From an uncultured delta proteobacterium (lineage in GTDB: Bacteria; Desulfobacterota; Binatia; UBA9968): a DNA stretch of 64,000 nt. Position numbers and translations under genes: made by a program. The notes below the pieces were generated by a model. It saw nothing but the letters and a program-made list of their open reading frames with translations, was not told the origin of the DNA and did not search any database. Positions 18,892 to 34,897 of this stretch are shown here, one piece after another. The stretch lies in the NCBI GenBank assembly GCA_963745035.1, contig CAVUVW010000013.1, positions 544,001 to 608,000 of the forward strand, given 5' to 3'. The stretch's first letter is position 1, and every line of letters begins with the position of its first letter.

Positions 18892-21612
18892 CTAAAGGTC
18901 GGGCTTCATGCCCCATTTCGAGTATCGCAGCCAGCGCTCCAACTGATCGGCGGGAAGCGGCTTGCTCATGAAATAGCCCTGCGCTTCGTCGCACCCCAAG
19001 GCCCCAAGCATATTCCACGTCTCCTGGTCCTCTACGCCCTCGGCGGTAACCGACAGCGCGAGGTTGTGGCCGAGCTCGATCGTCGAGCGCACGATCGTGG
19101 CGGTGTCCGCGTCGCTCATGAGCCTGGAAACGAAGAGTTTATCGATTTTGATCTCGCTTACGGGCAGGTGCTTGAGGTACGCTAGCGAGGAGTATCCGGT
19201 GCCGAAGTCGTCAATGGAAAATCGAAAACCGTGCCGGCTTAGAAACATCAAGACGTTTCGCGCCTTCGCCGGATCGGCCATCAGAGCGCTTTCGGTGATC
19301 TCCATGGTGATCGCGTCGGCGTGGGCGCCGTCTCCGTTCAGCATGGCGAGCACGTGGTTGGGGAACGACGGCTCGAGCAAGTTGCGCACCGACAGATTGA
19401 GTGAAACACTGAATCGATAACCGGCGCGCCTCCAGACGGCCGCTTGCCGAACGGCATTTTTGACTACCCACTCGGTGAGGCGCTGGATCGCGCCGGTCTT
19501 TTCCGCCAGGGGAATGAATTGATCGGGCGCGATCATGCCGCGCTCCGGATGCTGCCAACGCAGCAACGCCTCCACGCCGACGATCTGGTTGGTCTTGAAA
19601 CTCACCTTGGGCTGATAAAACAGCGCAAGCTCGTCATGATCGATGGCGGAGCTGAGCTCTCCCATCAGGGTCAGCCGATGCGGCTCGTATTGATCGATGG
19701 CGGAGGTGTATGCGGAGTATCCGGTGGCCGACCGCTTGGCGGCGCGCATCGCCATATCGGCGCGGCGCAGCAGGTCCTCGGCATTGCGCGCGTTTTCAGG
19801 AGCCAAGGCGATGCCGATGCTGGCGTGCACATCCAGCGGCAGATCGTCAATCGTAAACGGCGGTTCGAGCGCGCTGATGATCGAACGCGCTTGGTCCACC
19901 GCGTGCAGCGACATACCGTACCCGAGAAACAACAACGCAAACTCGTCGGCGTGCAACCGCGCCAGCATGTCGGCGCCGCTTACCGCGTCGCCAAGCCGCC
20001 GGGCGAATTGCCGCAGCAGCTTATCCCCTTTCTGGTAGCTCAGGGCGTTGTTGATCTCCTCGAAACCGTCGATGTTGACCCGCAGGAGCGCCATGGAGGC
20101 CGGACCTTCCTGGCGATCGAAAAGCTCGCGCACTCGCTCGATCAAACGCGATCGGTTCGGCAGCCCGGTGAGCGGGTCGTTGCTGGCGAGATACTTGAGT
20201 TCGGAGATCGTCTGCCAGAGAGCGACGGCTTGGCTGATCTGGCCATTGATGAGCTTGGAGAAATGAATCCACTCCGGGTAAAGCCCCCGCGTGTCCGAAA
20301 ACAACACGATCACGCCGAGCGCACGCGCGTCGAAGATCAGCGGCGCTATCAGCACCGAGCGCACCGAAGCCCTGCTCAGCAGAGATTGAAAACGCTCTTC
20401 ACCCGCGGGCGAGCTGAAAACCACCGGCTCGGCGCCGGCCATGGTTTCATGCAAGAGCTCTGCGGCGCCGTAGAAATTCGCCAAGGCAACCGTGTCCGCT
20501 TCCGAGAAGCCAATTTGGCTCGATAACTTCAAGCCGGCGCTTGGGTCCAGAAGGTACAACGCGCCGCGTGAGAAGCCGATAACCGCCAGATAGTGCGCAA
20601 GAATTTCGGACAAGAGACTTTCGATGTTTTGCCCGGAGCGCAGGAAATTCTGCGCCGCGCTCGCGAGCACGGAAATTTGCGCGCTCTGCGCCGCGCAGCG
20701 CCGCGCCAGATCGACGCTCAGTCTCGCCTGGCGGTTGAGCTGGCGCATCAAGCTCTCTTTGTGTCCGGCCTCGAATGTTTCTTCATTGGGCGCGGGCGCC
20801 GGCGCAGGCTGATTCAAACTGGCAAGCAGGATCTCCACCGCATCTTTGCAATCCGGCGTGCGCGCCACCAACGCGTTCGCGCCGATATCCGCCGCCAGTT
20901 GCTTGTCGGCGGCGTCGTCGTAGCTGTTGGTCAACAACACCACCGGGATTCTCTTCAGCCGCTCGTGCTTGCGAATCGCCAGGCAAAGCTCGAAGCCGTC
21001 GATCCGCGGCATCAGCACGTCGGAAATCACCGCGTCGGGAAACGTGGTTTCCGCCTTGGCGAGCGCTTCGGCGCCGTCTTTGGCGGTGGCCACGCCGAAG
21101 CCGAGATTGGCGAGATACGTCGCCAGCAGTTTGAGCTGCTTCGCGTCGTCGTCCACCGCGAGCACCACGCGTCCCTGCCCCGGCATGCTGATCGATGTTT
21201 TGCTGGCGGCCAGATGCGCCCGCACCGTGGTGACAAGAAACGAAGGTTCCACGGGCTTGAACAGATAATCGGCGAAATTCGCCTGCGGCAGCTTTGCTTC
21301 GTCGCCTTTGGAGATCAATCCAACGAGCGCCAGAATGGGAATTTTTTCCGCGCCGTCCACCGCGCGTAAACGGCCGACAAGATCGAAGCCGTCGATATCG
21401 GGAAGCAGGATGTCCTGCAAAATCAGATCGGGGAGCTCGCGCGACACGCTGGCAATCGCCGAGCGGCCATCCGCCGCTTCGGCAACGATGAATCCGTCGG
21501 CCTCGAGCGCCACCCGCGTAAGCTTGCGCGAAATCGGGTTGTCTTCGACCACCAGAACTTTCATCGGAGCCGCAAAGCCTTTCGCCGGGTCGGGCGCTTT
21601 ATATTGGGTCAT
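18892..21612 (-). CDS. REC-REC-GAF-GGDEF(degenerate)-EAL c-di-GMP phosphodiesterase
   Basis: Two receiver domains (VVEDN...QDILLP; AVDDD...SDVLMP); DPLTGLPNR; the A-site reads HADEF; intact EAL and DDFGTGYSS; start uncertain. Confidence 0.9.
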   Translation of the reverse strand: MTQYKAPDPAKGFAAPMKVLVVEDNPISRKLTRVALEADGFIVAEAADGRSAIASVSRELPDLILQDILLPDIDGFDLVGRLRAVDGAEKIPILALVGLISKGDEAKLPQANFADYLFKPVEPSFLVTTVRAHLAASKTSISMPGQGRVVLAVDDDAKQLKLLATYLANLGFGVATAKDGAEALAKAETTFPDAVISDVLMPRIDGFELCLAIRKHERLKRIPVVLLTNSYDDAADKQLAADIGANALVARTPDCKDAVEILLASLNQPAPAPAPNEETFEAGHKESLMRQLNRQARLSVDLARRCAAQSAQISVLASAAQNFLRSGQNIESLLSEILAHYLAVIGFSRGALYLLDPSAGLKLSSQIGFSEADTVALANFYGAAELLHETMAGAEPVVFSSPAGEERFQSLLSRASVRSVLIAPLIFDARALGVIVLFSDTRGLYPEWIHFSKLINGQISQAVALWQTISELKYLASNDPLTGLPNRSRLIERVRELFDRQEGPASMALLRVNIDGFEEINNALSYQKGDKLLRQFARRLGDAVSGADMLARLHADEFALLFLGYGMSLHAVDQARSIISALEPPFTIDDLPLDVHASIGIALAPENARNAEDLLRRADMAMRAAKRSATGYSAYTSAIDQYEPHRLTLMGELSSAIDHDELALFYQPKVSFKTNQIVGVEALLRWQHPERGMIAPDQFIPLAEKTGAIQRLTEWVVKNAVRQAAVWRRAGYRFSVSLNLSVRNLLEPSFPNHVLAMLNGDGAHADAITMEITESALMADPAKARNVLMFLSRHGFRFSIDDFGTGYSSLAYLKHLPVSEIKIDKLFVSRLMSDADTATIVRSTIELGHNLALSVTAEGVEDQETWNMLGALGCDEAQGYFMSKPLPADQLERWLRYSKWGMKPDL

Positions 21613-21998
21613 AGAGCTTGCCGTCACAATTCGAGATAGCCCTGGATGACTCCCGGCAGGGTTCGCGTGTCGATCGGCTTGGCGATATAACAATCGCGTG
21701 TCCGGCAACATGCCGGGCGCAAAAAGCGTCGGATGGCGCAAGACTTCTCGACACGACAGCCGTCAGAAAGAAAAAATTCTCCAAAGCGTTGGTCGATCGT
21801 TTCTGTGCAAAAATCGTCGAGTTCTGTTCACGCGCGGAAGCGAAACCTCCGTCCTCATGCTCGTGCCCGTCTGCGACCTTAGGCGGGTAACCTAGCTAGA
21901 TTTCAGCCCTTAACAGTCAATCTGACTGTCAAAAGCGGCGGCACGGTTGTTTTCTCCGATGCCGCGGCGTGCCTTTACCTATTTGTGGAGCGAATTTG

Positions 21999-22014
21999 AG
22001 CACTTTTCATGCCA
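21999..22014 (-). promoter_or_regulatory. Putative sigma-54 -24/-12 promoter facing the phosphodiesterase gene
   Basis: Minus strand TGGCATGAAAAGTGCT, with GG-N10-GC spacing, inside a ~660 bp intergenic region. Confidence 0.45.
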
Positions 22015-22274
22015 TAGCGGTCATCGAACGTCGTTGTGCTGCGCAGGACGGAAAACTGCGCTCGCGGAAACAAATTCGCAACAAATATTGCCAACCGCAA
22101 CCAAATCCTTGCCATTGTCCGTCAACAATGACCGGAAAATGTCAAAACTCCACGAGAATAAATTGCTGGTCTGGTATAGACGTCTACGACAAAAAGGATT
22201 TGGCCCCGCGGCGCAGTCACTCCCGACTGTGGATTTCGGCTTTAACGCGAGTCAACGCAATCGCGCGCCGAGCA

Positions 22275-23276
22275 TTATCGTTCGTAGAGTTTTTTAACGA
22301 AGCCGCTCTGTTCGATCTCACGCAGCAAGCTGTCATCGACAAACGCTTTCGGATCTGCGGTCTTGGCTTTCGGATTGTCTTTCTCGATAAAGCCGAGCAC
22401 GGTTTCGACGCCGCGCAGCGAAGGATACGGCGTGTTCTCGTAATACTTTGTGACCAATAGATCGAGCGAGCGATCCAGGTTTCGTTCCTGCTCGGGACCG
22501 ATGCGAAGCTTCTTCTTGACGATGTCTAAACTCTCCTGCTTGTTGTGCTTGACGAAAGCAATTCCTTCGACGTAACCCCTGAGAAATCGCAGCACCTTGT
22601 CACGATTGTTCTTGATATATTGGCGCGTCGTCGCAACCATCGTATGCAGGTAGTAAATGTCGGTATCGGCCATATCGAGCAACACTCGGTAACCGCGGTC
22701 TTCGGCAACGAACATCGAAGGAATCGTTACCACAGCGCCTTCGATACCCCCTTTGTCTAGGCTCGCCAGCATGCTCGGCGACGAGCCGAGTTGCATGACC
22801 TGCACATCGTTGACGCTCATCTTCCAGCGCTGCAGCATCATCAACAACACGGAATGGGACACCGCGCCGATGCGAGTGACGCCGACTCGTTTGCCCTTTA
22901 GATCCGCTGGAGTCTTTATATCGGGCTTGGTAATCAAGCGCTGTAGTCCCTTATTGACGACACTGGCGACCATCACGGTATCGCCGCCGCGCAGCGAAGC
23001 CGCGACCAAGACATCGCCCGCTGAGTTTACCATCTGTACGTCGTTGGCTATCAGCGCGCTGATGCCGGCGGTGCCACCTTGGCCAGTGACGATTACTTCG
23101 ATATCGATACCGTGCTTGCGAAACAGCCCCTTTGTTTCAGCGACCCACACTGCGCTGTGCAAGCCGCTCACTGAACTCAATCCCATGCGCATCTTGTCTT
23201 GCGCGCCCGCAGAAGCGGCCAGACATGCCGCGCTCAACAAGGAAATCAAAGCAGCCAAGCCAACTGATTTACCCAT
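22275..23276 (-). CDS. ABC solute-binding protein, SsuA/NMT1-like
   Basis: Signal peptide; ADLKGKRVGVTRIGA; PYPS; ADPKAFVDDS. Confidence 0.9.
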   Translation of the reverse strand: MGKSVGLAALISLLSAACLAASAGAQDKMRMGLSSVSGLHSAVWVAETKGLFRKHGIDIEVIVTGQGGTAGISALIANDVQMVNSAGDVLVAASLRGGDTVMVASVVNKGLQRLITKPDIKTPADLKGKRVGVTRIGAVSHSVLLMMLQRWKMSVNDVQVMQLGSSPSMLASLDKGGIEGAVVTIPSMFVAEDRGYRVLLDMADTDIYYLHTMVATTRQYIKNNRDKVLRFLRGYVEGIAFVKHNKQESLDIVKKKLRIGPEQERNLDRSLDLLVTKYYENTPYPSLRGVETVLGFIEKDNPKAKTADPKAFVDDSLLREIEQSGFVKKLYER

Positions 23277-23324
23277 GCTTACTCCTGTTTCTCTATCTCG
23301 CCCCTCAAGCCTTCGCCTCGGCCC

Positions 23325-24326
23325 TCACCGCTTGCCCATTTCCGCGAGTGCCTGTTTGAGATAGCCGGGATCGATGTATTTCGAGGGCTGGGGCAGAGGT
23401 TCCTTGAGAACACCCTGATCGGCCGTGAGATTGATGATCGTACGCACGCCTTCGACGTTGAGATCTGCGTTGCGGTCCCAAATACGGTTTTTCCAGTTGT
23501 AATCGTAGGCATAGCGGCAGTGATCCATACTGATCGACATTTCCTTGGTCAGGTATTCGCACGCCGGATCTCGGTTATTTTCCATCCAGCGCATGGTCGC
23601 GACCATCGCTTTCATGAAACGCACTACCAGCGGACGATTTTTTTCAGCCCACGATCGTTTGATGATGTAAACGTTGAACTGAAAGTTGGGCTGATCGTCG
23701 GCGAAGTAACCGATGACGTTGAAGCCCTGTTTTTTGGCGACGAGATCGAGAGGCACGCCGACGGGAGCCGCCGCGATTTGACCCGAAGTCAGAGCTTGGA
23801 ACCGATCGGGCGCGCTGCCGATGTTCAATAGCTTATAGTCTCGCGGATATTCAAGGCCGTGGACTTTCATGACGAGGCGCAAGGCAAACCCGGTGCCGGA
23901 AGTAAGCGTCTGCGATCCTATGGTCGTGCCGCGCAGATCAGCGTAGGTCTTGTATTGCTTGGCGCCGATCATGCTCAGTCCAAGTCCATTGATCAGTCCA
24001 CCGATCATGGTGATATCCGCGCCGCGCTCGTAGGCGTTGATGAGCGTGTCGACGGTAGCGCTTGCGACGTAGATAGAATCGGCCGTCAGTGCCTGAATGG
24101 TCAACGGCGAGCCGCGCATGGTGACGATCGGCACTTCCAGCCCCTCGCGCTCGAAAAATCCCATCTTCGCCGCGACCCAGAGCGGCCCATAACTCAGCGT
24201 CTTCGAGGACTCGCCGATGGGAAACCGAATCTTCTCCTGTGCGGCAGCAGGCGTCGCAAACGCCACCGCGAGCAGAAGACTCGCCACAGCCCGCGCGATC
24301 CACAATCCTCCATCCTCGATCCTCAT
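23325..24326 (-). CDS. ABC solute-binding protein, SsuA/NMT1-like
   Basis: Signal peptide; KTLSYGPLWVA and YADLRG; paralog of 12885-13868. Confidence 0.9.
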   Translation of the reverse strand: MRIEDGGLWIARAVASLLLAVAFATPAAAQEKIRFPIGESSKTLSYGPLWVAAKMGFFEREGLEVPIVTMRGSPLTIQALTADSIYVASATVDTLINAYERGADITMIGGLINGLGLSMIGAKQYKTYADLRGTTIGSQTLTSGTGFALRLVMKVHGLEYPRDYKLLNIGSAPDRFQALTSGQIAAAPVGVPLDLVAKKQGFNVIGYFADDQPNFQFNVYIIKRSWAEKNRPLVVRFMKAMVATMRWMENNRDPACEYLTKEMSISMDHCRYAYDYNWKNRIWDRNADLNVEGVRTIINLTADQGVLKEPLPQPSKYIDPGYLKQALAEMGKR

Positions 24327-24390
24327 GACCAGAAGTCCCTTCCTACTTACGCACTACTCCATCACTCCAACACTCCATTTCTCCAATTGT

Positions 24391-25474
24391 TTACCCAATC
24401 CCCTTGATCACGCACAGCGTATTGCGTCCGGTCCACATCGGCAGAAATACCGAATGGCGGTGCTTGCCGCCGACAACGATGACCATGATGTCCTCGGCCT
24501 TCGTGGAAAGATGAACCACGCCGTCAGGCGTGACGTTCGGCGACTCGCGCAGCAATTCGTCGTCGTTCTTGTGACCTTTGCGCCGCGCCGGTATTTCAGA
24601 AAATTTGAGCGACGCATGTTCCCAGAGATAATCTTTCACCTGCTTTTTCGTGATGCCGTCGCGCGCCATGATCTCCGCGTCCTCGACGCCGAGAGCGATG
24701 AGCGGGGTGCCGCCGCCGAAGCTGCCGACGTCGAGGTGGCTCACGCCATGGTGCATGCGGATGACTTCGGCGAGAGAAGAAAGCGCCTGCTCGCCGCGAC
24801 TGCCGGCGGTGTGGATCGGCAGAAAGCCGTTGATGCCGAAGACCGTCACCGCGTTGTCCTCCGGCTTGAAACCGAACTCCACGTGATACGGCTCCCAGGG
24901 GCTCTTTTCCTGATTTTCGCCGAAGCACATCGTGTACTTGCCCGGCCAGCCCAAAGGTCGATCGATCGGTGTCGCCCGGATAACCGCCGCCGACGGTAAT
25001 CAAAATCAAGCGCATCGCGCGTCCGATCGTCGCGTTCGAGCGAAAGCCTGGACCGAAAACGCCGGCGTCACAATTGACGTTGAGTTGTTTTCTGATCGGC
25101 CCATTCAGCAACAGGGCCGGACCAACATAGCCGGTAGTCGCCTGCACGCCGTAGAGATTGAACCGCGGCTCGCAGATCGCTTCGACGGCAGCGATCACGA
25201 CCGGCAAATATTCCGGCAAGCAGCCGGCCATCACCGCGTTGACGGCGATCTTCTCGATCGAACACGGCGCCCACTTGGGCGGGATCGGTCCGATGATCTC
25301 CTGCGGATCGCGGTTCGTCCCGGACAGCATGCGCTCGACCCGCTCCGGCGTCGGCGGCACGATCGGCAACCCATCGCTCAGCTTTTGGTTGCAAAACCAA
25401 TCATTGACCGCTTCCCAGCTGTCTTCGACTTCGATGAGGTTTGAGGTGAGGTTCACGTATGAAAGCTCCGACAT
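24391..25474 (-). CDS. Conserved partner protein of the UGSC selenoprotein (copy 1), with a +1 frameshift at 24953-24955
   Basis: DGLPIVPPTPERV, KIAVNAVMAGC and RSNATIGRA; removing one T gives STLGWPGKYTMCFGEN..SPWEP, colinear with the intact paralog 28771-29814. Confidence 0.85.
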
Positions 25475-25477
25475 TGT

Positions 25478-25894
25478 TCACGCCCTGATTTGTGTTCGAC
25501 GCTTTGCCTTTCCGCTGTTCCGCTTCCTTCCCCCTTGCGGGGAAGGATTGAGGTAGGGGGTGTTTTGCAGACTATTCGAAATAACTTCCATAACTCCATC
25601 AATGTTTTGGATCACATCATTGTTCCAAAACCTCAACACAATGAATCCCTGATTACGCAACCACGCATCACGACCAGCATCGTAGCTCTCCCGTTCTGCA
25701 TGCTGTCCGCCGTCGAGCTCAATGATCAACCTTTTTTCCAAACATACAAAATCGACGATATAACTGCCCAATGGCTGCTGGCGGCGAAACTTGTAACCAT
25801 TGACTTGCCAGAAACGGAGTTTTTGCCAAAGCAACTGCTCGACGTCAGTGGGATTCCTCCGCAAACGTCTGGCTCTCAAGCGGGCTGGATCCAT
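25478..25894 (-). CDS. DUF559 / Vsr-like PD-(D/E)XK endonuclease
   Basis: ARRLRRNPT..E..LW, FRRQQPLGSYIVDFVC, IELDGGQH, DAWL and GFIVLRFWN. Confidence 0.92.
   Translation of the reverse strand: MDPARLRARRLRRNPTDVEQLLWQKLRFWQVNGYKFRRQQPLGSYIVDFVCLEKRLIIELDGGQHAERESYDAGRDAWLRNQGFIVLRFWNNDVIQNIDGVMEVISNSLQNTPYLNPSPQGGRKRNSGKAKRRTQIRA
25524..25561. repeat. REP-like inverted repeat at the 3' end of the DUF559 gene
   Basis: Reverse complement ACCCCCTACCTCAATCCTTCCCCGCAAGGGGGAAGGAA; pairs with 25895-25933. Confidence 0.8.
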
Positions 25895-25933
25895 ACCCCC
25901 TATCCTTACCTTTCCCCGCAAGGGGGAAAGGAA
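25895..25933. repeat. REP-like inverted repeat directly upstream of the DUF559 ATG
   Basis: ACCCCCTATCCTTACCTTTCCCCGCAAGGGGGAAAGGAA with an internal hairpin. Confidence 0.8.
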
Positions 25934-26028
25934 TCGGAAGCAAACGGCTTCGGGTCAATCTCAGGTTTCAGAAGACCATTCCCTTGTATCGATTACTGTT
26001 TGTTCATTTAAAGCTCACCCAGCCTGAC

Positions 26029-26566
26029 CTACTGCCCCAACACCAACGTTCTCCCCACCAAATCCACCGCCCCTTCCGCATCCGCGCGATGCTCACCGGG
26101 GCGGGCGCCGCCGCTTGGGTGATGCGGTATCTCCACCAACGGCAGGTTCGCCCTGGCCGAAAAATTTGGCCTCCGTGCGCGCCAGCTCCATGAAAATCGA
26201 CTGGCATAAGGTCACCGTCGGCTTTCCCCTTTTCTGCAGCTCGATGGCGTCGTGGACACTCCACGACGTGCACGACCCTCAAGCGCCCAGACCGGTGATG
26301 ACGGCATCGCACCGGCTAAGCATTTCCTCCATGATGGGCTTCGGCGCGCCCTGCATATGGGTTGGCTTCGTTCTAAAGACAACTTCCTTCGTTTGATATT
26401 TTTCGCCCATGAGCTTTGCCAGTTCTTGAAACATCGTCGTCGAATTCGCCTGGCCGTTATCGATGATGCCCACGGTTTTCCCTTCGAGCGTTTCCAGACC
26501 CGGCACAAGCGGTCGGTCTTTCGGGTTCACTGTTGCTCTGGGATCGAGAAATTTGATAGTCGCCAT
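26029..26566 (-). CDS. UGSC-family selenoprotein (copy 1); Sec at TGA 26279-26281; 3' part has apparent indels
   Basis: DAVITGLGA-TGA-GSCTSWSVHDAIELQKRGKPTVTLCQ continues in frame after the UGA and aligns with copy 2; frame disruptions at about 26060-26155 make the end approximate. Confidence 0.8.
26249..26267 (-). promoter_or_regulatory. Bacterial SECIS-like hairpin (copy 1)
   Basis: GUCGUGGA-GUG-UCCACGAC starting 11 nt after the UGA. Confidence 0.8.
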
Positions 26567-26679
26567 GCAAAACACCTTTCGGTCGTCTGGACTTTACTGG
26601 CTCGAGCGAATGTATATCGAAAGCCCGGCGAGTCTCAAGGCTGATTTGCCGACAGCATTAACACGACAAAAGAGTCCGG

Positions 26680-27675
26680 CTACCTGTACAATCCGTCGAT
26701 GTATCCGGATTTGTCGAGCTCTTCGATGAATCGCGTGTCGACAAAATCCTTAGGATTGGCGTTCTTCGCGGCGGGTACGCGCTTCGCCAAGTCGTCGAAG
26801 ATCGTCTTGAAGCCCTCCAGCGTTGGATAGGGCTTGACCTGGACGAAGCTATTGAGCAGCTGATAAGTATCGTCGATCTCTTTTTCGTCTTTGATCTGCA
26901 TGCGCCTCGACAGCGCGCGCTTGGCAACGGCCGGATTGGTGCGCATGAGATGAATGCCTTCGATCACCGACTTCACTACGCGCCGTGTGATATCGGGGTT
27001 CTTCGCAATAAACCTTTGCGTCGTATTGAGGCCGGTTTGTTGCACCGGAATATTCATCTCTTGCATGTTCACCAAAACGCGCATGCCGGAAGCGACGGCC
27101 TTCACATAATAGGGCGGCTGAATGATCGCGCCGTCGATGATTCGGCCCGTAGATAGCGAAGCCAGTAGAACCGGCACGTCGCCGACCTGCACGTAGGAAA
27201 CGTCTTTGTCCGGATCCAGGCCGAGCTTGCCAACCAAGAGCCGCGACATCGAATCCGTAACCGTGCCGAAGCGCGTGATACCAAGTCTTTTGCCCTTGAG
27301 ATCCGCGACAGTCTTGATCTCCGGACGCACGACAAGTCGATACAAAGGCTTGTTGAGGAAACTCGCGACCATCACGACGTCGACGCCCTGCAACCGTGCA
27401 GACGAGAGCAGACTGCCGGAGTACACGCACATATCGATTTCACCGGCGATCATCGCCGTCTGTCCGAGAGTGGTTTGCAAATAAAGAATCTGCGGGTCGA
27501 CGCCGTTTTTCTGAAAGAGCCTGCCCTCGTCGGTCACCCACAACATCGCGTTGCTCACCGTTGCCCCGGAGTAACCGATGCGAACCTTGTCGGCTGCCGA
27601 GGCGAACTGCCGAGGGGAGAGGACCAATGTCACTACGGCAACGATGAATAGAAGATGAAATCGAAAATTGCTCAT
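26680..27675 (-). CDS. ABC solute-binding protein, SsuA/NMT1-like
   Basis: Signal peptide; ADLKGKRLGITRFGT; KPYPT; DFVDTRFIEELDKSGYID. Confidence 0.9.
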   Translation of the reverse strand: MSNFRFHLLFIVAVVTLVLSPRQFASAADKVRIGYSGATVSNAMLWVTDEGRLFQKNGVDPQILYLQTTLGQTAMIAGEIDMCVYSGSLLSSARLQGVDVVMVASFLNKPLYRLVVRPEIKTVADLKGKRLGITRFGTVTDSMSRLLVGKLGLDPDKDVSYVQVGDVPVLLASLSTGRIIDGAIIQPPYYVKAVASGMRVLVNMQEMNIPVQQTGLNTTQRFIAKNPDITRRVVKSVIEGIHLMRTNPAVAKRALSRRMQIKDEKEIDDTYQLLNSFVQVKPYPTLEGFKTIFDDLAKRVPAAKNANPKDFVDTRFIEELDKSGYIDGLYR

Positions 27676-27681
27676 GGGGAC

Positions 27682-28662
27682 CTAGCGAATTGAATCGATG
27701 TATCCAGATTTGTCCAGTTCTTCGACAAACCGGAGATCGGCAAAGTCTTTCGGATCGGCATTTTTTGCCGCAGGCATACGCTTGGACAGGTCATTCAAGA
27801 TCGCTTTGAAGCCTTCCAAGCTGGGATAGGGTTTGATTTGCGTGAAGCCGCGGAGTTGCTGATAGGTTTCTTCCAAATCCTTCGGATCTTTAAGGCGCAT
27901 GCGGAGAGAGAGCGCGCGTTTCGTGGTCTCCGGATCTCTGCGCACAACCGCGGCGCCTTCCACCACCGCTTTGACTACGCGTTTAACGATGTCCGGCCGG
28001 GCGGCGACGTACTTTCTCGTCGTGATCAAACCGGCATGTTGGTAGGGGATCACCGTTTCCTCCAGGTTCATCATGATGCGACCGCCATTCTCGACCGCCC
28101 TTTTATGATCCGGCGGATCGAAGATCGCGCCATCCACGGATTTCGCCATCAGCGCCGCGACACGGGTCGGCGTATCGCCGATCTGCAGGATTGTAACATC
28201 CGTGTCAGGATTCAGTCCGAGCTTCGACACCATCAAACGCGTGCCGAAATCCGACGCCGTGCCGAAGCGTGACACACCCAATCGTTTGCCTTTCAAATCT
28301 GCCGCTGTCTTGATGTCCGGGCGCACGACTAAGCGCGAGACTAGATAATTTAGGAAACCAGCGATCATCGTCACATCGGCGCCCTGAAGCCGGGTGGGCG
28401 TCATCAATAGACCTGTATAAACGGCGAACTGCGTTTCCCCGGCGATCAACGCGGTCTGGCCGAGCGACGCGGCCAGGTAAAGCACCTCGGCGTCGATACC
28501 GTTCTTGTCGAAAAGTTTCGCTTCCTTGGTCACCCAAAGGAGCGCGTTGCTTGTCGTCGTGCCGGAATAACTGATGCGCAGTTTGTCGGCGGCGGACAAG
28601 TTGCTAGCCCACACCAGACCAAGGAAGCAATACAGGATGATGAGTGATGATCGTCGGCGCAC
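27682..28662 (-). CDS. ABC solute-binding protein, SsuA/NMT1-like
   Basis: Signal peptide; ADLKGKRLGVSRFGT; tandem paralog of 26680-27675. Confidence 0.9.
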   Translation of the reverse strand: MRRRSSLIILYCFLGLVWASNLSAADKLRISYSGTTTSNALLWVTKEAKLFDKNGIDAEVLYLAASLGQTALIAGETQFAVYTGLLMTPTRLQGADVTMIAGFLNYLVSRLVVRPDIKTAADLKGKRLGVSRFGTASDFGTRLMVSKLGLNPDTDVTILQIGDTPTRVAALMAKSVDGAIFDPPDHKRAVENGGRIMMNLEETVIPYQHAGLITTRKYVAARPDIVKRVVKAVVEGAAVVRRDPETTKRALSLRMRLKDPKDLEETYQQLRGFTQIKPYPSLEGFKAILNDLSKRMPAAKNADPKDFADLRFVEELDKSGYIDSIR

Positions 28663-28768
28663 GCCCTCACCCTTCCCTCTCCCGCAAGCGGGCGAGGGTA
28701 AGAATAAGTGAAGAATGTCTTCGATCCGAAACGATTTGAACGATTTGAACGGCTTGAACGTTTTGAAC
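28663..28768. repeat. REP-like CCCTCACCC..CTCCC..GGGCGAGGG unit plus TTGAAC nonamer array
   Basis: gccctcacccttccctctcccgcaagcgggcgaggg; aacgatttg aacgatttg aacggcttg aacgttttg aac. Confidence 0.7.
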
Positions 28769-28770
28769 TC

Positions 28771-29814
28771 TTAGTCCCGAATTAGTTTCGTGACCGATCT
28801 CGTCGAACCGCCTTCCGGCGTGCTCTGTCCCCAGACGTGAATGTATTGCGACTGCGAGCCGTCGCCGCCGGCGACGACCACGAGAATATCTTCCGGTTTA
28901 TCGGTCACCGGGATCACGCTGTCGCGGGTGAGTTTCAGATCGCTGCGCCGTTTGACCCGCTGGTCAAAAGTTTCGTCCGGAAGATCCTTCATGCGATAGG
29001 CTGCGCGCTCCCATATAAATTTCTGAACATCTTTTTTGCTGAATCCGTCGTCCGCGATGATCTTGGCATGCTCCGGGCAAATCACCATGATGGCCTCGGG
29101 GCCGGAGGGTCCATCCATCTTCTGGGCGAAATTGATGAGCACGCCCTCCGCCTTGCTGCTGTCAAGATCCGAAGCTCGGATGGAAGCGTCCGCGCTGATC
29201 GCCGTCACCGTGCTTTGCTCCTTCTTGAAGCCGCGCTCCACGTGCAGCGGCTCCCACGGGCTCGCTTCCTCGTTCTCGCCGACACAGATCGAATATTTTC
29301 CCGGCCAGCCGAGTGTGGCCTTGCACGTCGTACCGGGATACGAGCCGCCGATATTGCGCTTCACCAGTTGCACGAAGCGGCCGATCGTCGCATTGGCGCG
29401 CCACCCTTCGCCCAAAGCGTTAGACCCGCCATTGATGTCGATGGTCTTTCGGATCGGACCGTTGACGATGATCATCACCGCCGGCCCGCCGGTGGTTGCT
29501 TGCAATGCATAAAGATTAAGCTTGGGATCGGTGATCGCCTCCACCGCGGCGATCAGCACCGGCATGTATTCGGGCTTGCAGCCCGCCATCACACCGTTGA
29601 TGGCGATTTTCTCGACAGTTGCCTGCGCCCAGCGCGGCGGCACCGCGCCGATAACATCCTGCGGATCGCGCTTGGTGGCGGCGAGCATCTGGCCGACCCG
29701 CTCTTCGGTCGGTGGAATGATCGGCAAGCCGTCGGACCAGCCCTTTTCTTCAAAGAAAGTCTGCGCCGCCCAGATATCGTCCGGTATCTCGAATCGCTCC
29801 GCTTGGAGTGCCAT
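28771..29814 (-). CDS. Conserved partner protein of the UGSC selenoprotein (copy 2), function unknown
   Basis: GWSDGLPIIPPTEERV, KIAINGVMAGCKPEY, QATTG, RANATIGR, TLGWPGKY, ENEEASPWEPLHVERGF and CPEHA. Confidence 0.88.
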   Translation of the reverse strand: MALQAERFEIPDDIWAAQTFFEEKGWSDGLPIIPPTEERVGQMLAATKRDPQDVIGAVPPRWAQATVEKIAINGVMAGCKPEYMPVLIAAVEAITDPKLNLYALQATTGGPAVMIIVNGPIRKTIDINGGSNALGEGWRANATIGRFVQLVKRNIGGSYPGTTCKATLGWPGKYSICVGENEEASPWEPLHVERGFKKEQSTVTAISADASIRASDLDSSKAEGVLINFAQKMDGPSGPEAIMVICPEHAKIIADDGFSKKDVQKFIWERAAYRMKDLPDETFDQRVKRRSDLKLTRDSVIPVTDKPEDILVVVAGGDGSQSQYIHVWGQSTPEGGSTRSVTKLIRD

Positions 29815-29831
29815 GTTTCCGTCCTCGAGGC

Positions 29832-29869
29832 AAAAAAAATCCCCGCCGAACGTTCTCGTCCGGCGGGGA
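29832..29869 (-). terminator. Intrinsic terminator between the UGSC selenoprotein gene and its partner gene
   Basis: Minus strand TCCCCGCCGGAC-GAGAAC-GTTCGGCGGGGA followed by T8. Confidence 0.8.
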
Positions 29870-29880
29870 AGACGTAAATA

Positions 29881-30435
29881 TTACGTTCCAGTAGCTGCCC
29901 GGCGCGCTTGCGGCTCGAGCAGGATATCAACGAGCTTGGCAAACGCCGCGTCCGCGCGCTTGTTGACATCCTCCACCTTCACCGTGCCGATCGGATGCTG
30001 CACGACCAGCACCGGATGATCCGGCGCGCCGAAAGCCTCCTTCTCGGACTTTGCCAGCGCGTCAAAGGCGTGGGTGATCAACGTCACCGCAAAGCGGCCG
30101 CGCTTTTGTAATTCGATCGAGTCGTGGACACTCCACGACGTGCACGAGCCTCAATCTCCCAGGCCGCTCAGGACGAAATCCGCCTGGGCCGCCAACTCGT
30201 CCAGATATTCCTTCGGCGCGCCTTGCTGCGCCGTCAGCTTGCGCCGCGAAATCACTTTGGCGACGCCGTACTCTTTTTTGAGCAGGTCCGCGAAACGCTC
30301 CGCCAGCTTATCCGCATTGGGCTTGCTGTTATCGAGCAGGCCGACCACTTTACCGTGCAGATCCTGGAAGCGCGGCACAGCGGCGACCTTGGCGGCCGAT
30401 GTCTGCGCCTTTCCCTCCGGACTGAGAACAATCAT
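29881..30435 (-). CDS. UGSC-family selenoprotein (copy 2), 184 aa with Sec95 at TGA 30151-30153
   Basis: ORFs 30151-30435 and 29881-30087 share a frame; read-through gives DFVLSGLGD-U-GSCTSWSVHDSIELQKRGRFAVTLITHAF...VVQHPIG; AAGGAGG RBS. Confidence 0.9.
30121..30139 (-). promoter_or_regulatory. Bacterial SECIS-like hairpin (copy 2)
   Basis: GUCGUGGA-GUG-UCCACGAC starting 11 nt after the UGA; identical to copy 1. Confidence 0.8.
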
Positions 30436-30509
30436 TCATGCCTCCTTAAACTTGAAGCCAAACAAACCTATCCCCTTTCCACCACGTCTCCTTCGAAAAT
30501 AGGAGTGAA

Positions 30510-30633
30510 GAAAGATCTCTCACTTCGTTCGAGATGACAGAGACTTGTACCGCATTGTCATTTCGAGCGGATGCGAGAAATCTTTCCTTGGCGGCCCTCA
30601 CCCATTCCTTCTCCCGCAGAGCGGGCGAAGGGC
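30510..30633. repeat. REP-like pair (AGATCTCTCACTTCGTTCGAGATGACA / TGTCATTTCGAGCGGATGCGAGAAATCT) plus a CCCTCACCC-type REP
   Basis: Near-identical to 12746-12818; the second unit at 30594-30633 resembles 28663-28698. Confidence 0.75.
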
Positions 30634-31721
30634 TACAACCCGTAAAATGCCTTCGGGTTGTCATAAAGAATCTTCTGCACGGCCGCCTGGGGAATGTCCC
30701 CTTTGTCCGCTCGCGCTTGAAGTTCCTTGCGAAATTCGAGCTCCATCGATGGATCGCGATGCGTGTAGTCCGATCCCACCATCAGATTATTTTCGCCGAC
30801 GGTTTTGATGATATACGGAAGGTCTTCGTCGACCTGGCACGTGATATAGATGCGGTTCTCCTCGAACACATTCTGAGGCAGCTCGATCAGCGGGACACCG
30901 AGCACGCTGGTGCTCTCGCGTCCCTGCTGGCGCAACTGCTGGCGCCGCAGATCGTAGGCCACGAACGGCGCCCACATGGAACCCGCCTCGATACAGCCGA
31001 AGCGAAGCTTGGGAAACTTTGCCGGAACCTTGTGCAGAATAAGCCCGAGCACACCGTTGATCGCCGCGCCCTTCGTGCGCATGAATTGGCCGTGCGAAAA
31101 CTCCCGCGCGGGTGAGAAGTCCGGCACACCCGAACCGGTGTGGATACAGATCGGCAAATCGAGTTTCTCGGCTTCGGCATAGAAAGGTTCAAAGTACGGA
31201 TCGGCCGGATATTTGCCCGCCTCGCGATCGCCCTTCTTCAATACACCGCAGGCGCCATGATCTTTGGCCCAGCGTATTTCCGCCAGGGCGTCCTCCATAC
31301 TTTGCAGCGGCGGCATGCAAACCCAGCGCAGCCGTCCGCCCGATTCGGCGCAGCGGTCGCCCAGCCAGCGGTTGTAACTGCGCCGCATGGCCGCGTTGAT
31401 CTCCGGCTTTTCCGTCGCTTCCATCAGGAAGAGCGTGGGATAAATCACTTGTATGTCCGTGCCCAACTCATCCATGTGCTTCAGGCGCGCCTTGACATCG
31501 AGCAGCTCGCGCGTTTCCACGGTCGTGCCTGAATCCTTGTCGCTGCGAACAAAGCGAATCTGACGTTTGCCGTCGATCACCCAGTAGCGCGCCGGCGGCA
31601 GCTTCGGATCAGGATTGGACGGAAAAGCAGTCGACGGCTTAAAAGGCGCGTCGGCGTCCGGCATATACTCCCAGGTGGCGTCGGTTTCATCGATATGTGT
31701 GTCTGCGTCGATAATTCCCAC
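30633..31721 (-). CDS. Amidohydrolase-2 family protein
   Basis: IIDADTH, QVIYPT, SYNRW, CIHTG, IEAG and GSDYTHRD. Confidence 0.9.
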   Translation of the reverse strand: MGIIDADTHIDETDATWEYMPDADAPFKPSTAFPSNPDPKLPPARYWVIDGKRQIRFVRSDKDSGTTVETRELLDVKARLKHMDELGTDIQVIYPTLFLMEATEKPEINAAMRRSYNRWLGDRCAESGGRLRWVCMPPLQSMEDALAEIRWAKDHGACGVLKKGDREAGKYPADPYFEPFYAEAEKLDLPICIHTGSGVPDFSPAREFSHGQFMRTKGAAINGVLGLILHKVPAKFPKLRFGCIEAGSMWAPFVAYDLRRQQLRQQGRESTSVLGVPLIELPQNVFEENRIYITCQVDEDLPYIIKTVGENNLMVGSDYTHRDPSMELEFRKELQARADKGDIPQAAVQKILYDNPKAFYGL

Positions 31722-31951
31722 TGCAATTTCTCCTTAATATGATCTTCATTCGCGGCGCATCTTCCTGTTTCTTAATACAAACCCGCGGTGCGGTCAAAAC
31801 CTCGAGCCGGCACAGACGGTGAATTCAGCAGGAACGATGTAAATGGACGTCAACGCATCGTCGCACGAGTTCGATCTTCGGCATCATCGAAATCGGCGAG
31901 ATACACCCGGCGCAGAACTGCCGTTTGGAGACGACGCGCCCGTTGCGGTTG

Positions 31952-33610
31952 CTAATCGCCGCCCTGCAGCGGTTTTCCGGAAAGCTCGGTCAGCGTCGCG
32001 CCGGGAGTGACGAACTCCAAATCGGTCGTGACTTCGATCAGCGCCGAGCGTTTCGCCGCCATCGCCTGGCGCAGCGCCGGCAAAAATTCTTCATCGCGCG
32101 TCACCTTCAAGCCGAGCGCGCCGTAGGCGGAGCCCAGCCCGGCGAAATCCGGGTTTACCAAGTCGTTGCCGTACTGGCGTCCGGGATACTGCGCTTCCTG
32201 GTGCATGCGGATCGAATTGTAGCCTTCATTGTTGTACACGATCGTGATGATGTCGGCGCCGTACTGCTTGGCCGTCGCCATTTCCTGGCCGGTCATCAGA
32301 AACCCGCCGTCGCCCGCGTGCGCCACCACCAATCGATCGGGATGGGCGAGCTTCGCCGCCACCGCCGACGGCACTCCCGGCCCCATGCAGCCGAGAGCGG
32401 GCGAGATGTACGAATCGGCGTAGTCGAATTCCAAAAAGCGCTGGTGCCACTGGCCGAAGCTTCCCGCATCGGTCGTCGTAATCGCATCGGCCGGCAGCGC
32501 GGCTTTGAGATCGGTCATCACGCGCTCCATCGACACGCGCCGTGTCGGCCGCTCGGCCGGCGTACTGTAGCGCTTTTGCGCGGCGTGATGCTCCGCCACC
32601 CATCCTGCCCGGTTCTCGTTCGGCCGCGGCCCTTGTAACTTGAGGGCGGCCGCGAGCGCCGCCTTGGCATCGGCGACGATGCCGGTGTCGGGACGCAAGT
32701 TCTGACCGATGGTTTGCTCGTCGGGATAAATTTGGATAAACGGCTGGCCGGGCCGTGGAAAGGCGAAAGACGCCGTGGTTTGCTGATTCAAGCGGCTGCC
32801 GATCACGACGACGAGATCGGCCTCGTTGGCTACGAGATTTCGCGTGTGCTTGTTCGCGTTCGCCAGGTTGCCGATGTAGTTCGGATGGCTGTTGGGAAAT
32901 GCGTCCTGGCGTTTGTAGCTGGTAAGCACGGGAATCTGAAACTTCTCCGAGAAATCGATCAGCTCCTGCCGCGCGTTCGAATATTGCGTGCCCGAGCCGG
33001 CGATCAGCACCGGCTTCTTCGCCGCATTGATGCGATCGATCATCTCTTCGATCGACTTCGGATCGGGACTGGGCCGGAGCGGCGGATACGGATCGATCAT
33101 CGAGATCTGCGCGTCTTCTTCGAGCATGTCGCGCGGCAAGGAGACGACCACCGGGCCGGGGCGGCCGCTGCGCGCGATGTGAAAGGCGCGCGCCATGGTG
33201 CGCGGAATCTGCTTGGCGTCGTTGATCTCGATCACCCACTTGGCGAGGGTGCCGAAGAAGTGCGTGTAGTCGATTTCCTGTCCCGCCTCCCGGCCCCGAG
33301 CCGAGCGGCCCACCTGTCCCACCAGCAAAACCAGCGGCACGGAATCGTATTTCGCGCTGTGCACCGCGATGCTCGCATTGGTCGCTCCGGGCCCGCGGGT
33401 GACGATGCAGACGCCCGGTGTGCGCGTGGCCTTGGCGTAGCCTTCCGCCATGAAACATGCGCCGCCTTCCTGGCGGTTGGTGATCAGTTGGATTTCCCCC
33501 GTGTCGCAAAGCCCGTCGAGCACCGCGACGTAACTTTCCCCCGGCACACAGAAAACGTGCCGCACACCCTCATTGCGCAGACACTGCGCCACTGCATGAC
33601 CGGCAATCAT
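31952..33610 (-). CDS. Thiamine-diphosphate-dependent enzyme (acetolactate synthase-like)
   Basis: FCVPGESY, RQEGGA, TRGPGATN and the GDGGF...NN ThDP motif. Confidence 0.92.
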   Translation of the reverse strand: MIAGHAVAQCLRNEGVRHVFCVPGESYVAVLDGLCDTGEIQLITNRQEGGACFMAEGYAKATRTPGVCIVTRGPGATNASIAVHSAKYDSVPLVLLVGQVGRSARGREAGQEIDYTHFFGTLAKWVIEINDAKQIPRTMARAFHIARSGRPGPVVVSLPRDMLEEDAQISMIDPYPPLRPSPDPKSIEEMIDRINAAKKPVLIAGSGTQYSNARQELIDFSEKFQIPVLTSYKRQDAFPNSHPNYIGNLANANKHTRNLVANEADLVVVIGSRLNQQTTASFAFPRPGQPFIQIYPDEQTIGQNLRPDTGIVADAKAALAAALKLQGPRPNENRAGWVAEHHAAQKRYSTPAERPTRRVSMERVMTDLKAALPADAITTTDAGSFGQWHQRFLEFDYADSYISPALGCMGPGVPSAVAAKLAHPDRLVVAHAGDGGFLMTGQEMATAKQYGADIITIVYNNEGYNSIRMHQEAQYPGRQYGNDLVNPDFAGLGSAYGALGLKVTRDEEFLPALRQAMAAKRSALIEVTTDLEFVTPGATLTELSGKPLQGGD

Positions 33611-33784
33611 GATCTTCCTCCAAGCGTTGTTTTTTCGCGCGACTCTCTGTCGTATAACGCCCGCCTGCTCCCGCTGTCAATGTCGCTCCGAGCAAACTTT
33701 TCAACCGTTGCCCGTTGCCTTCTCCACCATTGACAGCCTCGAATCACTGGTGCTAACCCGAAGTAGAAGACGAGGAACACAAAC

Positions 33785-34897
33785 ATGACCGGAATCATCG
33801 ACGCCGACACGCACATCGCCGAATCGGAAAGCATGTGGAGCCTGATCGACGAGATCATGTACCACCGCCGTCCCGTGATGCTCTCGGTGCCGGACGACAC
33901 GCTTTACCGCGACTTCAACGTTGTCTGGCTCATCGACGGAAATATTTTTCCCAAAGCCGCGGGCAAGGGCGGCTTTCGCCTGATCACGCCGGCGGCCTCG
34001 ATGCGCGAAACGGGACGGACCGACATCCATCGCGTCAGCCGGGAAATCAGCGACGTCGATGCGCGCCTGGCCGACATGGACAAGGCCGGCGTCGCCGCGC
34101 AGGTAATCTATCCCACATTGTTTCTCGTCCAAGTAACCGACGATCCTGCTTTGGAAGCGGCGCTCTGCGCCGCCTACAACAAATATCTCGCGCAGGTTTA
34201 TCGTAAGGCAAACGGGCGGCTCCGTTGGGTCGCCGTGCTGCCGCTTCATTCCGTAGACAAATCCATCGAGCAGATGCACCAAGCCAAGCAAGACGGCGCC
34301 GTCGGATTGTTCTTCAGCGGCATCGTCGGATCATTGACCCTCAACAATCCGCACTTTCATCCGATCTACGCCGAAGCCGAAAAGCTCGGCCTGCCGATCT
34401 GCGTTCACACGGGACAAAGCTGCCGCCATCTGCTGGACTTTTTCGATTTGGAATTGAACGGAACCTTCGCCGCTTCGCAGCTCCCGCCGGTCATCGGCTT
34501 CCGCGACCTCGTGGCGAGCGAGATTCCCGAAAGATTTCCGGAGTTGAAGTTCGGCTTTCTCGAAGCCTCGGCAAGTTGGGTACCGTACCTTTATCATCAC
34601 CTGAAGCGCTCCGCCCGCCCCCGCCCGTCGTTTCCCAACGCGCGTTGGAAGCACGCCTCGTGCGAAGACCTCTTCCGCGACTACCGCATCTACGTCGCCT
34701 GCGAAGCCGACGAAGATATTCCTTATCTCGCGGAATTCATCGGCGAGGATCATTTGATGATCGGGTCCGACTACGGCCACAATGACCCGGCGGAAGAGAA
34801 ATTGTTAGTGCAAACGATGCGATCGCGCGAAGATCTTTCACCAGAATTGGTCGATAAAATTCTGATCCACAATCCCAAGGAGTTCTATTCGCTGTAA
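33785..34897 (+). CDS. Amidohydrolase-2 family protein
   Basis: IIDADTH, QVIYPT, AYN, CVHTG, LEAS and GSDYGHND; TTGACA upstream at 33730. Confidence 0.9.
   Translation: MTGIIDADTHIAESESMWSLIDEIMYHRRPVMLSVPDDTLYRDFNVVWLIDGNIFPKAAGKGGFRLITPAASMRETGRTDIHRVSREISDVDARLADMDKAGVAAQVIYPTLFLVQVTDDPALEAALCAAYNKYLAQVYRKANGRLRWVAVLPLHSVDKSIEQMHQAKQDGAVGLFFSGIVGSLTLNNPHFHPIYAEAEKLGLPICVHTGQSCRHLLDFFDLELNGTFAASQLPPVIGFRDLVASEIPERFPELKFGFLEASASWVPYLYHHLKRSARPRPSFPNARWKHASCEDLFRDYRIYVACEADEDIPYLAEFIGEDHLMIGSDYGHNDPAEEKLLVQTMRSREDLSPELVDKILIHNPKEFYSL

Follow-up and report, generated by a model that had tools for sequence, protein, structure and literature searches.

The UGSC family was described by Zhang and Gladyshev as the 'UGSC-containing protein' (2007 and 2008; PMC1976440, PMC2398784), and in the 2007 report, where Hyphomonas neptunium is among the organisms that have it, it is given as a "selenoprotein of unknown function" (PMC1976440). 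The 2008 survey has UGSC as a major selenoprotein family of the Global Ocean Sampling data (255 sequences with Sec, 21 with Cys) with the motif UxxC, and already includes the fusion "UGSC/Unknown_1" (PMC2398784). UGSC is among the commonest selenoproteins of aquatic and soil metagenomes. A 2026 review places UGSC under NF041046 and describes almost every selenoprotein of this kind as largely uncharacterized in function (PMC13188914). Our full-text literature search found no functional study of UGSC, and no paper was found in a literature search that proposes UGSC and the gene beside it as a selenium-dependent reductase. The enzymes with which we compare the pair below, glycine reductase and D-proline reductase (Grd and Prd), work through a pyruvoyl group and a selenoether intermediate, and their proproteins are cleaved or modified at a Cys.

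We suggest that the locus analyzed here, part of a 64,000-nucleotide stretch of DNA (hereafter the window), encodes a UGSC selenoprotein which, together with the product of the gene that adjoins it downstream, may make up a two-part enzyme; we put the probability of this reading as a whole at roughly 0.85. The segment is one gene of the already described UGSC selenoprotein family and not a new one (Table 1). The first-pass annotation had remarked that this gene is split into two ORFs of the same frame, and so it is: on the minus strand, 30151..30435 encodes 94 aa and ends at the TGA, 29881..30087 encodes 68 aa, and the two ORF starts are 348 bases apart and hence in a common frame. Its expectation of a 184-residue protein if the TGA stands for selenocysteine is likewise borne out by translation, which gives U95 in the context ...FVLSGLGD-U-G-S-C-TSWSVHD..., a UxxC motif. 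The NCBIfam equivalog model NF041046, "UGSC family (seleno)protein", gives the protein 134.1 bits against a curated cut-off of 125 bits, and Pfam PF24696, "UGSC family", the sole Pfam family found at E<=1, gives it 161.6 bits (cut-off 25). What was announced as a hidden selenoprotein is a real selenoprotein gene, but it is hidden only to a naive ORF finder, the family having been published (NF041046, PF24696; PMC1976440, PMC2398784). As a selenoprotein call the locus therefore carries little weight: an ORF finder has split a Sec gene in textbook fashion, and the NCBI family model would name the gene.

Table 1. Features of the UGSC locus and its surroundings, in window coordinates
Feature	Position	Strand	Basis or remark
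Partner-gene paralog, split over two frames near 24952	24418..25450	-	tblastn
Paralogous UGSC gene, frame break near 26150	26029..26566	-	tblastn
Two NMT1/SsuA-like solute-binding protein genes	26680..28662	-	PF09084; TIGR01728 below cut-off
Partner gene, 347 aa	28771..29814	-	adjoins UGSC downstream
Intrinsic-terminator-like hairpin, 13 pairs (10 G-C), then eight T	29840..29869	-	between UGSC and partner
UGSC-family selenoprotein gene, 184 codons and TAA (29883..29881)	29881..30435	-	translation; NF041046, PF24696
SECIS-like hairpin, 8-pair stem, 3-base loop, 11 bases 3' of the TGA	30121..30139	-	folds, pair counts
TGA read as Sec, codon and residue 95, in U-G-S-C	30151..30153	-	translation; same codon TGA in relatives
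Shine-Dalgarno-like AAGGAGG, 5 bases 5' of the ATG (30435)	30441..30447	-	direct sequence reading
Amidohydro_2 gene, upstream of UGSC	30633..31721	-	PF04909

The stop codon within the gene recurs wherever the family does. The organism's own genome has four UGSC copies, which fall into three types (two of the copies are free, the other two are fused), and all four matches contain exactly one TGA. One of these is the paralog that the first-pass annotation had cited as having TGA at the equivalent codon; by tblastn, 26506..26156 is 46% identical over residues 20-136, and its stop at position 95 is TGA 26279-26281. Across 41 genomes, this one and 40 relatives, the family is present in 37, and one TGA was found in 82 of the 84 UGSC matches listed, the remaining two being fragments at contig ends that do not include the site; a chance nonsense mutation is as unlikely as had been supposed, the same TGA having been kept across all these related genomes. 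One relative (G005) gives three of the 84 matches, and its locus L035 is one row of our alignments A2 and A4; we make no claim on that genome alone. In a sample of the phylum the family is found in 18 of 151 genomes, with one TGA in 50 of 56 matches, and at each of the 33 loci that we read out the stop is a TGA preceding G-S-C or S-T-C.

Homologs with cysteine at this position, for which a search had been recommended, do exist, and they align with the Sec position among database homologs, at one genomic locus and in fused forms. Sixteen database homologs could be aligned (those of 47 database matches that cover at least 70% of the query, P0009 left out), and their Sec column holds C in five cases, W in ten and a garbled character in one; we infer that the tryptophans are TGA codons called as Trp by gene callers on short contigs. 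Locus L067 reads C-G-S-C with the Cys codon TGC, and of 13 fused forms, full-length or partial, nine show C at the Sec position and four have neither Sec nor Cys. The first-pass annotation had allowed for homologs that are consistently two separate proteins; those found are single proteins.

The machinery for inserting selenocysteine is present in the same genome. Contig C17 carries selA (592.3 bits), selB (346.9 bits) and selD (384.6 bits), all above their cut-offs, and a tRNA-Sec that scores 76.7 bits with Rfam and is called by ARAGORN as tRNA-SeC with anticodon TCA. That no sel gene is visible within the window, as had been remarked, is correct, the genes all being on C17. The selD gene (C17:318816-319742, L014) has one in-frame TGA of its own and probably encodes a Sec-containing SelD. 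On the sequence evidence, we regard it as very probable that SelA, SelB, SelD and tRNA-Sec of this genome insert selenocysteine at UGA codon 95.

The UGA is followed by a SECIS-like hairpin, which we infer would direct its decoding as selenocysteine. Its apical loop is three bases long, or five if the closing A-U opens, and we take the 11-base spacing and the loop bases to be as in the SECIS of Escherichia coli fdhF. Third codon positions included, 31 of 33 loci from this genome and its relatives have the same bases in the stem (the exceptions are L004 and L026), and the codons flanking the stem vary at their third positions across the 33; the hairpin lies within codons of a conserved peptide, and its conservation is in part protein constraint. 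Pair counts were made on 49 distinct sequences, left from 59 candidate sites once seven exact duplicates and three false motif matches outside the gene had been dropped. In these, 89.5% of 392 cells are paired, against 21-45% with the 3' side slid, a count for which the structure was taken from one of the counted sequences. Changes on both sides occur in six of the eight pairs, and double-sided changes amount to 41 cells as against 8.3 in shuffles, with none of 500 shuffles as high, a test that the kinship of the sequences inflates. An Rfam scan of 22000-34000 at E<=1 gave no match to a SECIS model, only one chance-level match to a CRISPR repeat.

An AlphaFold2 model of the UGSC protein, built on a 23-row alignment, predicts a single domain of five beta-alpha units with a pLDDT of 90.6; one predicted domain across both "ORFs" speaks against two separate proteins. 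Residue 95 is placed between strand 87-93 and helix 96-111, and Sec followed by G-S-C comes after the third strand of the model, the motif position of the UGSC family. Sec95 and Cys98 would thus lie at the start of the helix, one turn apart, where the model would allow a selenenyl-sulfide to form. Foldseek aligns the model with flavodoxin-like proteins at TM 0.4-0.5, and VIA with numerous chains of CheY-, flavodoxin- or Rossmann-like type at Z 9-11; the 40 Foldseek and 50 VIA rows listed contain no chain of thioredoxin fold. Searches of the PDB by sequence with the UGSC and partner profiles returned nothing below E 0.8.

Two other accounts of the TGA have to be set against selenocysteine. The codon might be read in the ordinary way as Trp or Gly, as it is under codes 4 or 25, or be passed by near-cognate readthrough, with no selenocysteine involved, and the ten of 16 aligned database homologs recorded with W would be in keeping with this. 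Yet TGA is an ordinary stop in this neighborhood, where three of 17 genes end in it, none of the other 16 has it internally, and Trp is written TGG; the genome has the complete Sec machinery, and the natural alternative residue, to judge from L067 and the fused forms, is Cys and not Trp. We consider a sense codon or readthrough very improbable. Still less probable, and the least credible of the readings weighed here, is a nonsense mutation or an assembly error that would make the locus a pseudogene or two small genes. Such errors of frame do occur in this assembly, in the UGSC paralog near 26150, in the partner paralog and in two GRDB copies split over frames, but an error at codon 95 is contradicted by the recurrence of the same TGA in relatives, by a predicted fold that spans both halves, by Cys homologs that are continuous and by the hairpin pair counts as well.

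The frame breaks themselves are most readily put down to assembly indels, the likeliest explanation for this genome. At 26150, contigs of all three DNA runs that cover the position have one base fewer, which restores the frame seen in relatives, and the frameshift of the UGSC paralog is probably an assembly error; at 24952, one base is left out in the contig of run X1 and not in that of X6. Other frames are split by single-base indels on C13 near 712964 and in the GRDB copies on C27 and C15. 'Pseudogenes' in this assembly should accordingly be read with care, given the probable indel errors. At the TGA itself, all public runs with contigs listed on this stretch have those contigs end at about 30095-30160, where summed depth jumps at the TGA-hairpin region, and likewise at 26163-26369. 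Since the contigs end where the paralogs share nearly identical sequence, the runs neither confirm nor contradict the TGA independently. Elsewhere in the window, a read-through extension of the GGDEF-EAL gene (18892-21858) was considered as a Sec gene and rejected, its upstream part being junk.

The partner gene matches no Pfam or NCBIfam family, and it belongs to a very large group of proteins: in one collection at least 7997 of 8000 candidates scored at E<=0.001, and in another there are 5605 representatives (at 50% identity) at E<=0.001, 1400 of them at E<=1e-30. In all 32 testable loci it either is fused to UGSC or is its immediate neighbor on that strand, a 33rd locus being cut by a contig end. 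In a survey of fusions among the best 150 representatives of the partner family, the 67 that are at least 385 aa long were scanned with Pfam, and 45 of these have a UGSC domain, in either order. The domain is whole and N-terminal in 12, partial in one, begins just after Sec in 28 and is cut at Sec in four partner-first forms; the 28 and the four, all broken at the Sec position, are gene-caller products of Sec forms. AhpC/Redoxin-type domains are present in three of the 67, one of them weak, and a ferredoxin:thioredoxin reductase beta-chain domain (FeThRed_B) in two, one of which also has UGSC. Six further forms, of about 710-740 aa, match the query in two to four separate stretches without a Pfam match above cut-off and look like tandem copies of the partner domain. 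The redoxin or FeThRed_B fusions and the long forms include P0271, P0283, P0297, P0305 and P0171.

No variation occurs at G78, C79, G119, R146, E180 or G316 across 70 stand-alone partner sequences. The genome itself has four partner copies, two free, both within the window, and two fused (C13:712349-713885 and C11:48290-49843, the latter with U-S-T-C); the fused paralog on C11 has Ala where the partner has Cys79. The partner is predicted with a pLDDT of 95.2 and a pTM of 0.93. Foldseek found no match for this model in the PDB at E<=0.001, and its top rows (class I fumarate hydratase, cyanuric acid hydrolase and selenophosphate synthetase) have TM values of 0.16-0.25 and are distrusted; a wide VIA search of 48,161 chains gave none at Z>=5, the best being at Z 4.0. 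The ESM Atlas clusters nearest the partner bear automatic names such as 'Thioredoxin family protein' and have no Pfam family in common, and they are a lead only.

Two tandem cassettes occupy 22275-30435 of the window, each consisting of UGSC, partner and two genes for NMT1/SsuA-like binding proteins. There are thus four NMT1/SsuA-like genes in 22275-28662 on the minus strand, two after each UGSC-partner pair, and they score below the TIGR01728 cut-off; among the 19 ORFs scanned in 15280-40077 there is no permease or ATPase gene. A DUF559 endonuclease-like ORF (PF04480, E 2.2e-43), at 25478-25921 on the minus strand, separates the UGSC paralog from that of the partner; another genome of the genus (L084) has its two cassettes directly adjoining, with no such ORF. 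The order of genes in the genus is amidohydrolase, UGSC, partner and binding protein, the binding protein being present in all seven and the amidohydrolase in all six loci where they would be visible, and it is only within the genus that the amidohydrolase and NMT1-type context is conserved. A different family of the order has acyl-CoA dehydrogenases nearby, together with a TctC-like gene, and a class-level relative has HpaB and SDR genes; neighbors that differ in this way between lineages give no clue to the substrate.

A strong terminator-like hairpin parts UGSC from its partner, and it argues against simple co-transcription of the two. The hairpin and its T run are found at the same place in six of 11 same-type loci of relatives, with differing sequences, which suggests that UGSC may be made in excess of the partner. 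Short contigs of an RNA run (X19) match parts of the UGSC and partner genes at 90-99% identity; they come from a soil metatranscriptome and are no demonstration of transcription by the present organism.

It is the comparison of profiles that connects UGSC with a known enzyme family. With hhalign, the UGSC profile (A2) aligns to a profile of GrdB-like C-terminal ends (A5, the last ~200 residues of ten GrdB-like proteins from this genome and its relatives) at a probability of 88.8% and E 2.5e-6 over 95 columns, covering UGSC residues 76-177 and placing Sec on Sec. Pairwise BLASTP between UGSC and GrdB-like proteins is weak (E 0.012 and 0.16). Control comparisons with other parts of GrdB and GrdE span probabilities of 0.08-0.34%: UGSC against the N-terminal domain of GrdB gave 0.3%, the partner against 13 GrdE-like sequences 0.2%, and the partner against the GrdB N-terminal domain 0.08%. 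At the level of sequence, this shows homology between the half of UGSC in which Sec lies and the C-terminal end, likewise with Sec, of proteins of the GrdB family. UGSC has the look of a shortened relative of the GrdB Sec module, and its partner that of something else.

Outside the window, the genome has pairs of GrdE-like (PF09338) and GrdB-like (PF07355) genes at C13:702486-703523 (L098) and C11:122680-123735 (L099). Both of these GrdB-like genes read on through a TGA, in U-G-T-S or U-G-T-C, and past the end of the Pfam GRDB model a TGA is found in all 32 loci read, two of this genome and 30 of relatives, in U-G-T-S, U-G-T-C or U-G-S-C. With such a continuation in every GrdB-like locus read, these soil and rhizosphere bacteria carry several GrdB-type selenoproteins.

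What might the pair do? Gene context and fusions are what link UGSC to its partner, and on balance we think it somewhat more likely than not that the two form one enzyme. The pair would then most likely be a GrdB-like selenol/thiol reductase module. For a more specific version we would offer only even odds, namely that UGSC and its 347-residue neighbor may be the halves of an undescribed and very widespread selenium-dependent reductase, with UGSC as a cut-down Sec module of the GrdB type and the partner as a catalytic subunit unrelated to GrdE or PrdA. If the two do form one enzyme, the partner would bind or activate the substrate, and the selenol of Sec95 would attack the substrate so bound; a selenenyl-sulfide with Cys98 would result, to be re-reduced by a thiol system of the thioredoxin type. 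The last of these steps is suggested by the thioredoxin-like, redoxin-like and ferredoxin:thioredoxin-reductase-like domains fused to some relatives. D-proline reductase and glycine reductase proceed in like manner, by selenol attack followed by re-reduction of the Se-S bond.

A different role is conceivable, in which UGSC is a free-standing thiol/selenol oxidoreductase, a general carrier like thioredoxin, which is what the literature had guessed, and the partner is a client or a mere syntenic neighbor. The terminator-like hairpin that parts the genes, here and in six of 11 similar loci, fits such a carrier, as do partner relatives that have a redoxin-like domain in place of UGSC. We nevertheless find the carrier role unlikely: adjacency or fusion in every testable locus, and a fused UGSC domain, before or after that of the partner, in 45 of the 67 long representatives, are more than a general carrier predicts, and the structural matches shown for the model are flavodoxin-, CheY- and Rossmann-like, with no thioredoxin fold among them. 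For work at the bench, the locus offers handles in a partner that is obligate and has an invariant Cys, in the homology with the Sec end of GrdB, which can be measured, and in natural fusions with thiol-reductase domains.

Set beside the published UGSC family, the locus shows essentially nothing different: they have in common the U-G-S-C motif, a TGA where the family has Sec, and Cys forms that are rare, and it is only that the fold predicted here is flavodoxin-like and not the 'Trx-like fold' guessed in 2008. The hairpin resembles a bacterial SECIS of the Escherichia coli fdhF type in lying within the coding sequence right after the UGA and in having G and U in its apical loop, but it differs in its perfect 8-pair stem without a bulged base and in its very small loop. 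With the UxxC and CxxU selenoproteins of thioredoxin fold (Trx-like, Prx-like and DsbA-like), UGSC has in common a Sec-x-x-Cys pair at the start of a helix, and thioredoxin-like domains are fused to some relatives of its partner; its predicted topology, in contrast, is one of five parallel beta-alpha units, and it has no thioredoxin-type Pfam match. Unlike GrdB and PrdB, UGSC has no match to PF07355 and lacks the ~230-residue N-terminal domain of GrdB, the aligned Sec segment of the GrdB-like proteins lying just beyond the end of the Pfam GRDB model. The partner has no detectable relation to GrdE and PrdA (PF09338), so that the analogy with glycine and proline reductase stops short of the partner. 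What UGSC does share with GrdB and PrdB is the UxxC motif, as given in Table 2 of the 2008 survey (PMC2398784), and, as with the GrdB-like proteins and their GrdE or PrdA counterparts, a place beside a larger partner gene.
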